Assembly: GCA_043827405.1 (NCBI GenBank)
Contig: JBDRPD010000063.1
Span: forward strand, 1 to 64,000
From: Elusimicrobiota bacterium
GTDB lineage: Bacteria > Elusimicrobiota > Elusimicrobia > UBA1565
DNA length: 64,000 bases
Direction of reading: 5' to 3'
Notes under the pieces: model-generated
Told to the model about the DNA's origin: nothing
Database searches by the model: none
The model's input: only the letters and a program-made list of their open reading frames with translations
In this document: positions 14,137 to 16,370 of the stretch, piece by piece
Numbering within the stretch: the stretch's first letter is position 1
How the letters are laid out: each line of letters starts with the position of its first letter
Translations under genes and position numbers: made by a program

Positions 14137-14670
14137 TCACAGCAGGAGGACTTGGACGCGGACGCGTCCGGGAGTGAGGGTGAATTGCAGCGGAGATAAT
14201 ACCGGCGCCGCAGGTCCGTCCGGGGCGCGCCCGACGACGCAGGCCGCGGGCGGACGAACCTTGGGAGAGCGCTGGGGGGTTAAAGCTGAAATTTTTTCGC
14301 CGCCATGCGCCGCCGGCAGCTCGCCCCGGAGCGCCGCGGCGACGAGATTGGAACGGTCCAGGTAGTTCAGCAGGGCCTTGAGTCCGCCCATAGACGACAG
14401 GCCCGCGGCCTCATGCGCGACCGCCTGCTCGCCGGCGCGAATCTCGCGCTGCAGGTCGCGGCGCGAGATCAGGCGGTTGCGGTAATCGCGCAGCTCGATG
14501 CCGTCCGTATGCATGACCACGCGCCAGGCGTCGGTCCGCGACACCTGGCGCATCGCCGAGCGCGAAGACTCCGTCGCGAACAACGGCAGCGCCGCCGCCA
14601 AGCAAAAAGCCAAGAGTCCCAACAAAGTTAGGAACCTCTTGGCGCTGCTTACCCTTCGGCGTTTTATCAT
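14137..14670 (-). CDS. Hypothetical exported/membrane protein directly downstream of the riboswitch
   Basis: Basic N-terminus plus hydrophobic helix; Pro-rich C-terminus; 120 nt after the aptamer. Confidence 0.6.
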   Translation of the reverse strand: MIKRRRVSSAKRFLTLLGLLAFCLAAALPLFATESSRSAMRQVSRTDAWRVVMHTDGIELRDYRNRLISRRDLQREIRAGEQAVAHEAAGLSSMGGLKALLNYLDRSNLVAAALRGELPAAHGGEKISALTPQRSPKVRPPAACVVGRAPDGPAAPVLSPLQFTLTPGRVRVQVLLL

Positions 14671-14681
14671 CGCTTCAACCC

Positions 14682-14748
14682 AAAACGGAGCCCGGCCTCG
14701 CCAACTATCTTACCCCTCTATCCCGAAGATAGCAAGCCAAGGCCGGGC
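14682..14748 (-). terminator. Long hairpin with short U-tract; probable riboswitch expression platform
   Basis: GCCCGGCCUUG...CUAUCUU / AAGAUAG...CGAGGCCGGGC followed by UCCGUUUU. Confidence 0.45.
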
Positions 14749-14790: not shown

Positions 14791-14921
14791 GAGCTACTTT
14801 CGGCAACCGGGCCACCCATCACGGGCCCCAGGCTTTGCGCCCCCGGCTTACGCCCTGGCGCTCGACTCCACTGCGCCAGGCTCAGCAACGCTGAGCGGGT
14901 TTGCTATTATCGCTGCAACTC
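14791..14921 (-). ncRNA. GEMM-I (c-di-GMP-I class) riboswitch, A20 variant (candidate 3',3'-cGAMP sensor)
   Basis: Minus strand: P1 GAGUUGC/GUAGCUC; CGAUAAUAGCAAACCC...GGC-GUAA-GCC-GGGGGCGCAAAGCC...CCGGUUGCCGAAA; begins just after a sigma70-type promoter. Confidence 0.85.
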
Positions 14922-14930
14922 TACAGTCCC

Positions 14931-14958
14931 AGTATAACACGATGCCTTGATTTGTCAA
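14931..14958 (-). promoter_or_regulatory. Sigma70-type promoter of the riboswitch leader
   Basis: TTGACA (14953-14958), 16-nt spacer, extended -10 TGt-TATACT (14931-14936). Confidence 0.75.
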
Positions 14959-14991
14959 GACCTAAACCCTTGACAAGCCCCCCTCCCCAAC

Positions 14992-15086
14992 AAGTTTTGG
15001 TACCGGCCTTCAACTTATTGGAATTATTCCGTCGGCCGTCGTGGATAAGTACAAAACTCTAATAAGTTGAAGGCCGGTACCAAAAC

Positions 15087-15088
<2 letters not shown>
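14992..15088. repeat. GGTACCGG-type inverted-repeat element, subtype A copy 1
   Basis: Perfect 28-bp arms AAGTTTTGGTACCGGCCTTCAACTTATT (14992-15019 and 15061-15088); overlaps the purA stop codon. Confidence 0.9.

Positions 15089-16370
<1,282 letters not shown>

Follow-up and report, generated by a model that had tools for sequence, protein, structure and literature searches.

The window analysed here, 64,000 nucleotides of DNA from an Elusimicrobiota bacterium whose genome (G000) is 98% complete, carries on its minus strand a compact regulatory locus in which a riboswitch sits 5' of its gene, between a sigma-70-type promoter and the reading frame of a 177-aa protein, with a putative upstream ORF and a long hairpin in the leader and a C-rich element behind the stop codon (Table 1). 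A promoter search found one site against 0.2 expected in shuffles, and the same promoter form is common to 38 of 39 orthologous leaders; as read from the sequence, transcription would start near 14924. Between purA and the promoter lies an imperfect long palindrome (14976-15100) that is REP/MITE-like and has look-alikes at eight other sites in G000.

Table 1. Features of the riboswitch locus, with positions in the 64,000-nucleotide window.
Feature	Position	Strand	Basis or remark
Sigma-70-type promoter: TTGACA 14958-14953, 16-nt spacer, TG (extended -10), TATACT 14936-14931	14931..14958	-	11/12 consensus
c-di-GMP-I (GEMM-I) aptamer: P1, J1/2, P2, J2/3, P3	14791..14921	-	RF01051, fold
P1 strands, 7 bp	14921-14915 with 14797-14791	-	sequence, fold
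J1/2	14911-14900	-	sequence
U19, A20 (Vc2 numbering)	14906, 14905	-	Rfam consensus has G at 20
42-nt insert between P2 base pairs 4 and 5: hairpin A 14895-14881, hairpin B 14880-14854	14854..14895	-	fold
P2 tip: two base pairs and GUAA (GYRA) loop	14846..14853	-	fold
J2/3	14841-14831	-	sequence
A47	14836	-	follows Rfam consensus
C92, C93	14803, 14802	-	CC kept in 142/143 copies
CCGAA	from 14803	-	sequence
Putative upstream ORF, 26 codons; AUG at the base after P1, ends at the downstream hairpin loop	14710..14790	-	sequence
Long expression-platform hairpin, nearly invariant loop 14724-14714	14690..14748	-	covariation
Weak U-rich run behind the hairpin	14689-14682	-	sequence
Controlled gene, 177-aa protein	14137..14670	-	signal-peptide-like N terminus (by eye)
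C-rich element, 10 bases, 11 nt after the stop codon	14116..14125	-	exact complement of G000:C49:7785-7794 (L001)

By model score and anatomy, 14791-14921 is a class I cyclic-dinucleotide riboswitch of the c-di-GMP-I type. The Rfam model RF01051 (c-di-GMP-I) matches 14915-14799 (-) over its whole length (1-87) and scores 41.1 bits where the gathering cut-off is 35 (E 1.3e-4 in the 64-kb window), with the insert left in place, and it is the sole Rfam family to exceed its cut-off within the window. The original prediction had described a GEMM-I riboswitch directly downstream of a TTGACA/TATACT promoter, with P1, J1/2, J2/3 and CCGAA on the minus strand and an A, at 14905, where Vc2 has G20; each of these elements was found where it had been placed, and the covariance model passed its cut-off with no need to remove the insert. 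The A20 in question stands two positions ahead of the C in GCAAAC and is preceded by U19. The pocket bases A47 and C92 and the G21-C46 pair match the Rfam consensus, and the pair adjoining A20, G14904-C14837, is G-C as in that consensus. Once both inserted hairpins are set aside, P2 consists of 4 + 2 bp and GUAA, giving a three-helix junction with a GNRA loop. The minimum-energy fold contains the P1 and P2 arms with a modest z-score of -1.74 (10 of 200 shuffles were equally good), and a P1-type duplex of -4 kcal/mol or lower is present in all 39 orthologous leaders, whose sequences differ, a count for which no shuffled control was run.

As far as the available text of PMC1950547 describes them, the receptor-less GYRA riboswitches of the GEMM-I class share with this one the full model match, the P1-P2-P3 junction, A47, C92, the G21-C46 pair and the lack of an 11-nt receptor, as well as a position 5' of cell-envelope genes. 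Unlike typical GEMM-I riboswitches, the window copy has an A at position 20, two hairpins in P2 and, further downstream, a distinct hairpin whose loop is nearly invariant. No link between Elusimicrobia and the c-di-GMP-I riboswitch class was found among the papers searched, judged by title or abstract.

A search of G000 for more A20 aptamers was successful: the genome holds exactly one further c-di-GMP-I copy, G000:C49:7820-7896, which is also U19-A20 and has the same P2 without the insert, and a looser pattern yielded no third credible copy there. Across the order, an Rfam search found the riboswitch in 49 of 61 genomes, with 143 matches in total, all of which were examined. Three orthologous genes lie downstream of most copies, encoding a UPF0164/PorV-like protein with TPR (46 copies), the 177-aa protein (39) and a CsgG-like protein (29). 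The 12 genomes that lack the riboswitch have no orthologue-level match to the UPF0164/PorV-like protein (two have matches of 28-34% only) and none to the 177-aa protein, so the switch and its target genes tend to vanish together.

Position 20 is G in 121, A in 20 and C in two of the 143 copies, and U19 accompanies A20 in 19 of the 20. By locus, A20 is found in 8 of 46 copies before the UPF0164/PorV-like gene, 2 of 39 before the 177-aa gene (the other 37 being G20) and 7 of 29 before the CsgG-like gene. Sixteen of the 49 genomes have A20 and G20 copies together; in G000, alone among the 49, every copy detected is A20. One family retains U19-A20 at one gene in 6 of 6 loci, and in a related order U19-A20 stands at all nine orthologous barrel-gene loci fetched (five parsed, four read by eye); a quick tree of 50 barrel proteins requires at least four A20/G20 label changes, two or more of them forced by well-supported branches. 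The place next to position 20 is G in all 143 copies, a figure to be read alongside the search pattern, which forced G for 21. The GYRA loop, which the original prediction took to mark the GEMM-Ib subclass in company with A20, proved as common with G20 (85/121) as with A20 (11/20) and is not diagnostic; GYRA without the 11-nt receptor is described as a general GEMM form (Weinberg 2007, PMC1950547). A third pocket variant, C19-C20, occurs in two aptamers (L230 and L231, from G053 and G055). At the CsgG-like gene of G000 itself (G000:C3 near 92400), a promoter-like motif, TGTGAATTGAC, is kept and the aptamer is absent, and at the CsgG-like loci of relatives (the cluster of 29) the 3' end of the aptamer can pair with a segment immediately ahead of the start codon, in what looks like ON logic.

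With its outer 4 bp enforced, the insert of the window copy folds as a four-way junction with three branches and no unpaired bases (z -2.4; 2 of 200 shuffled inserts took the same shape), and we infer from this model that the extra hairpins would stack coaxially at the junction, leaving P2 with six base pairs and its GUAA loop. Inserts of 36-60 nt recur in 14 of the 143 copies, spread over the three loci and over G20 and A20 aptamers alike. Eight of the 14 fold as three branches with at most two unpaired bases; the other six did not when the 4 bp were enforced, and in three of them the insert follows the first P2 base pair instead. These different registers (after base pair 1 in L207, L209 and L212 against base pair 4 in L002, L227 and L215) suggest separate origins of one shape. 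The four-way-junction insert lowers Rfam scores, so that searches miss copies: one insert-bearing aptamer in G013 (L366, G013:C8) escaped the Rfam genome search, and the counts of insert-bearing copies are lower bounds. Among the literature matches listed, there was no publication on a two-hairpin insert in P2.

On balance, we consider it likely that this A20, insert-bearing c-di-GMP-I riboswitch reads c-di-GMP and not cGAMP, and its effect is predicted to be to turn the gene off. The predicted direction of the switch rests on the hairpin between aptamer and gene, a co-varying element with a nearly invariant loop that is new here and is also found without an aptamer. Its 11-nt, purine-rich loop motif occurs in 34 of 42 leaders. 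The G+C-rich stem is backed by covariation, with changes on both sides in 10 of 20 pairs and 97% of cells paired among 16 aligned hairpins, above all shuffles and slid controls. The U run behind it is weak and in the window starts 3 nt past the stem; most leaders are U-rich there, usually 1-3 nt away, and a terminator scan returned one site against 1.1 expected. The hairpin is single-copy in G000, and no Rfam family matched it even at a loose threshold, the only matches being to microRNA precursors, far below the cut-off and on palindromes. It may act as a small RNA or as a binding site for a protein. As a ribosome-binding site the loop was rejected, a UUG standing 7 nt behind it in only 16 of 34 leaders, and as a conserved peptide it was rejected as well, the reading frame varying among genomes; a search of G000 for a complementary RNA partner gave nothing convincing in the best 45 of 830 candidates, nearly all of which lie inside ORFs.

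In the full-length fold of the leader (-118.0 kcal/mol; -100.9 kcal/mol with the basal hairpin pairs forbidden) the aptamer helices and the hairpin coexist. According to the available text of PMC9262584, this is also so in the Cd1 riboswitch of Clostridioides difficile, an OFF switch whose aptamer can form together with the downstream hairpin, whereas in the pilM ON switch aptamer and terminator are mutually exclusive. Cd1 differs in having a G in place of A20 (G11) and a mapped antiterminator; here none is conserved. Pairing between J2/3 and the hairpin 5' arm, the candidate considered, has a probability above 0.5 in no more than 15 of the 34 leaders, its partners varying, and was rejected; in the window the 5' arm pairs with the aptamer with a probability of 0.32. 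Given c-di-GMP as the ligand, and by analogy with Cd1, the riboswitch is probably an OFF switch: the bound aptamer and the hairpin would coexist, with P1 closed by the ligand as far as the upstream AUG and formation of the hairpin unhindered, resulting in less read-through or translation of the 177-aa secreted-protein gene. OFF is a prediction because no antiterminator is conserved, because the run of U behind the hairpin is weak and because only 21 of the 39 orthologues have an ATG within 14 nt of the aptamer.

The same observations bear on an alternative, namely that c-di-GMP is read by an ON switch, with the bound ligand preventing aptamer strands from stabilising the hairpin, or acts mainly through the upstream ORF, or that the hairpin has a factor of its own and the aptamer is a second, independent input beside it. 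The missing antiterminator would suit it, as would the restriction of the upstream AUG to those 21 leaders, and so would the presence of the hairpin directly behind the promoter, with no aptamer in between, in G025, in G029 and at 5 of 22 metagenome loci (of the others, 15 have the aptamer, A20 in four, and two are too short). Since the hairpin does occur without the aptamer, it may not be the aptamer's switch. Nevertheless, hairpin and aptamer do not overlap, unlike those of pilM, and form together in the fold, and we regard this alternative as unlikely. The hairpin loci recorded are L372, L373, L378, L387, L391, L395 and L396, together with those of G025 and G029, which do not have the usual gene.

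The GEMM-Ib subclass is reportedly defined by Kellenberger 2015, Nelson 2015, Ren 2015 and Smith 2010, which may name determinants outside the pocket. Within the pocket, the available text of Keller 2018 (PMC6140456) has A20 facing the alpha base of the ligand and contacting the adenine of cGAMP, and C92 pairing with the beta guanine. According to the same text, A20 aptamers bind c-di-GMP through an N1-protonated A; the values for Vc2 G20A are 53 nM for c-di-GMP against 120 nM for cGAMP, those for the natural aptamer Cbe 1-2 are 30 nM against 463 nM, and Gs1761 is only about threefold selective in the buffer used there. The caveat in the original prediction that A20 alone does not guarantee selectivity was well placed. 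The window aptamer is like these bispecific aptamers in having A20 and C92, ordinary diguanylate cyclases in its host and an expected binding of c-di-GMP by protonated A20, and differs from them in its P2 insert.

By this analogy the window aptamer is likely to be bispecific and to read c-di-GMP: c-di-GMP from the Asp-type GGDEF enzymes of G000 would bind with one of its guanines paired to C92 and the other held by A20 protonated at N1, and A20 versus G20 would tune affinity and leave the signal unchanged. We hold it quite probable that c-di-GMP is the working ligand, because the GGDEF enzymes are Asp-type, A20 and G20 interchange at the same genes and other A20 aptamers bind c-di-GMP, and the RNA would probably bind cGAMP in the tube as well. 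The retention of U19-A20 and the coexistence of A20 and G20 look selected, which would also fit a second ligand. As a ligand, c-di-AMP was rejected, the DAC gene of G000 notwithstanding (the genome also has seven HD-domain matches), with C92 being kept.

Hypr enzymes carry Ser/Thr at GacA position 348, where Asp drives GTP specificity, as given in the available text of PMC6456294. G000 has eight GGDEF domains, seven with Asp at this site and an eighth that is degenerate, without an active-site motif, and a home-made GGDEF profile run over all six frames of the genome recovered the same eight. When 93 distinct domains from across the class were aligned (8 from G000, 28 further loci among the 30 fetched from 117 matches, 26 of 26 and 30 of 34), 91 had Asp, one Asn and one was degenerate, so that Hypr Ser/Thr with an intact GGD-type motif occurred in 0 of the 93; the 26 of 26 are the matches in five related-order genomes, 95-100% complete, all five of which carry U19-A20 aptamers. 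A DNA pattern for the Hypr motif gave seven matches in 61 genomes against seven for a reversed control, none of them a Ser/Thr GGDEF, within the reach of a pattern that requires Gly-His and misses Gly-Phe forms; one match in a GGDEF-like frame read Arg, at a contig end. As for other sources, G000 gave no SMODS match (SMODS is present in 3 of 21 A20-bearing genomes), no DncV-like match in a search run without a positive control, and no match to a CBASS cyclase in PADLOC for its five nucleotidyltransferase hits. Receiver-GGDDF proteins with Gly-Phe replacing Gly-His (L008, L009 and relatives) are conserved in all genomes examined.

The suggestion in the original prediction that this organism may use cGAMP signalling thus finds neither a Hypr GGDEF enzyme nor a CD-NTase match in the host, and the same gene is preceded by G20 in 37 of 39 copies. 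A cGAMP-selective aptamer here is improbable in our estimate; it would amount to a GEMM-Ib-like sensor supplied with 3',3'-cGAMP by an Elusimicrobiota cyclase that lacks the Hypr Ser/Thr, for example one of the conserved receiver-GGDDF proteins, of which G000 has two. The aptamer does resemble those of Geobacter (Gs1761, Gm0970, pilM) in A20, in its short P3 and in the pocket bases listed for Gs1761 (G8, A9, A11, A12, A14, A41, A42 and C75 are identical here), A20 is the very contact for the cGAMP adenine (in the available text of PMC6140456), U19-A20 is kept over long branches and a Geobacter GGDDF enzyme can be active, making cGAMP (PMC8835794). However, that enzyme has the Hypr Ser, whereas the GGDDF domains here have Asp in 22 of 23 cases and Asn in one, and most relatives have G20 at the same genes. 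The pair adjoining A20 differs as well: in Gs1761, C15-G40 adjoins A14 (so the available text of PMC6274999), a feature of the type example, and the window aptamer has G-C there. Geobacter has 17 GEMM-Ib copies against two in G000, and the overlap of aptamer and hairpin is absent here. In sum, the riboswitch is predicted, by analogy, to work most like the bispecific A20 aptamers, the cyclases of its host setting it apart from GEMM-Ib.

That the aptamer is decaying, with A20 and the 42-nt insert leaving little binding and the promoter and hairpin alone running the gene, is very improbable: the window copy does fall in the lowest-scoring tenth of the 143 matches, some genomes have lost the aptamer at the 177-aa locus and G000 has lost it before the third target gene, but the low score is due to the insert, every core position aligns, P1 has its 7 bp, and the insert folds as a clean four-way junction of a kind that recurs at all three loci.

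The orthologous G20 and U19-A20 aptamers at the same genes, in hosts in which no cGAMP cyclase was found, provide a natural test of A20 as a predictor of cGAMP. If the A20 aptamers here bind c-di-GMP, annotation based on A20 over-calls cGAMP signalling; if they prove selective, an as yet unrecognised cyclase exists.

The controlled protein has no Pfam family, and the link between gene and riboswitch is conserved across three families. The original prediction had remarked that the host does not look deltaproteobacterial, which agrees with the homologues of this protein: the five of 87 that come with an organism name are all from Elusimicrobia/Elusimicrobiota. A structure model (pTM 0.37) had no PDB match in Foldseek, and the best ESM Atlas match (0.87) was uninformative. 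All 37 of the 37 family members terminate in L-[RL]-[CIL]-stop, 28 of them in LRC, with codons varying synonymously, and the family also has a GLDVRD motif. Arrest-peptide monitoring substrates are small unannotated proteins with an N-terminal signal, a conserved C-terminal motif and a spacer of >30 aa (10.1101/2023.09.02.556018), an anatomy that the 177-aa protein shares; those substrates lie upstream of sec or yidC, whereas the 177-aa gene precedes an unannotated 198-aa ORF. In many relatives the next gene begins with an F/Y-x-R-A-R stretch. The genes behind the controlled gene in the window (13999-3815 (-), putatively co-transcribed) begin with this unannotated ORF and go on to a GT2 glycosyltransferase, three radical-SAM proteins, of which one is B12-binding, a membrane/methyltransferase fusion and a pair of TPR proteins.

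The second novelty is the C-rich element that follows the stop codon, which is complementary to the leader of the second riboswitch in G000 and co-varies with it across genomes of three families. Its complement lies near the tip of a long hairpin situated ahead of the second aptamer. Averaged over the 35 genomes in which both parts are present, the longest complementary run is 8.9 nt within and 6.3 nt between genomes, an excess reached in 0 of 100,000 permutations, also when these were made within families; runs of at least 8 nt occur in 23 of the 35 own pairs against 16% of cross pairs, and control windows shifted by 45-150 nt gave 5.4-5.9 nt. Six pairs not used before had runs of 10, 11, 10, 7, 6 and 4 nt, the last in a short leader without the loop. 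Of all 41 pairs taken together, 27 have a run of at least 8 nt, comprising 23 distinct sequences. When each of the 21 genera was represented by a single genome (200 draws), the figures were 8.3 against 6.2 nt, with 0 of 2,000 permutations reaching this in every draw, and the leaders of the other two loci have no excess of complementarity (6.9 against 6.9; 6.3 against 6.6). The co-folding gain is -10.0 kcal/mol for own pairs against -6.7 for others (0 of 20,000), and the bases that match are unpaired more often than those of the leader overall (0.61 against 0.40). Only 10 of 32 co-folds place a genome's own partner among the three best (it is seventh in G000), and the complementarity fails in G003, G009, G014, G026, G028 and G042, among others. 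A genome-wide ranking of post-stop regions put the window gene 31st of 9,698; the list held faulty, over-long rows and is not counted as evidence. The two sites occur in both relative orientations among genomes, which argues against a DNA inversion pair.

Antisense kissing-loop pairs such as CopA/CopT, like 3'-UTR-derived small RNAs, bring a short G-rich loop against a C-rich stretch over 8-14 nt, and the two change together. It is tempting to speculate, and in our view quite possible if somewhat short of probable, that the mRNAs of two separate riboswitch loci control one another through direct base pairing in this way, 14125-14116 kissing the G-rich loop at G000:C49:7785-7794 in the leader of an outer-membrane-barrel operon. 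Unlike in CopA/CopT-type pairs, both partners, as predicted from sequence, would be parts of riboswitch-controlled mRNAs encoded apart. Such trans pairing would make the output of one riboswitch a second input to the other, in a circuit for a cell-surface regulon of Elusimicrobiota and, if true, a form of cross-talk of which no matching description was found, by title, among the literature matches listed. Because related genomes are not independent and the same data gave rise to the idea, the co-variation is a strong lead and not proof.

The second riboswitch lies after a gene of more than 2,500 codons, and the region that it heads (G000:C49:7901-16429) begins with the barrel/TPR gene, followed by genes for a 660-aa protein and a proline-rich protein and by genes that, by eye, look like MotA/MotB.
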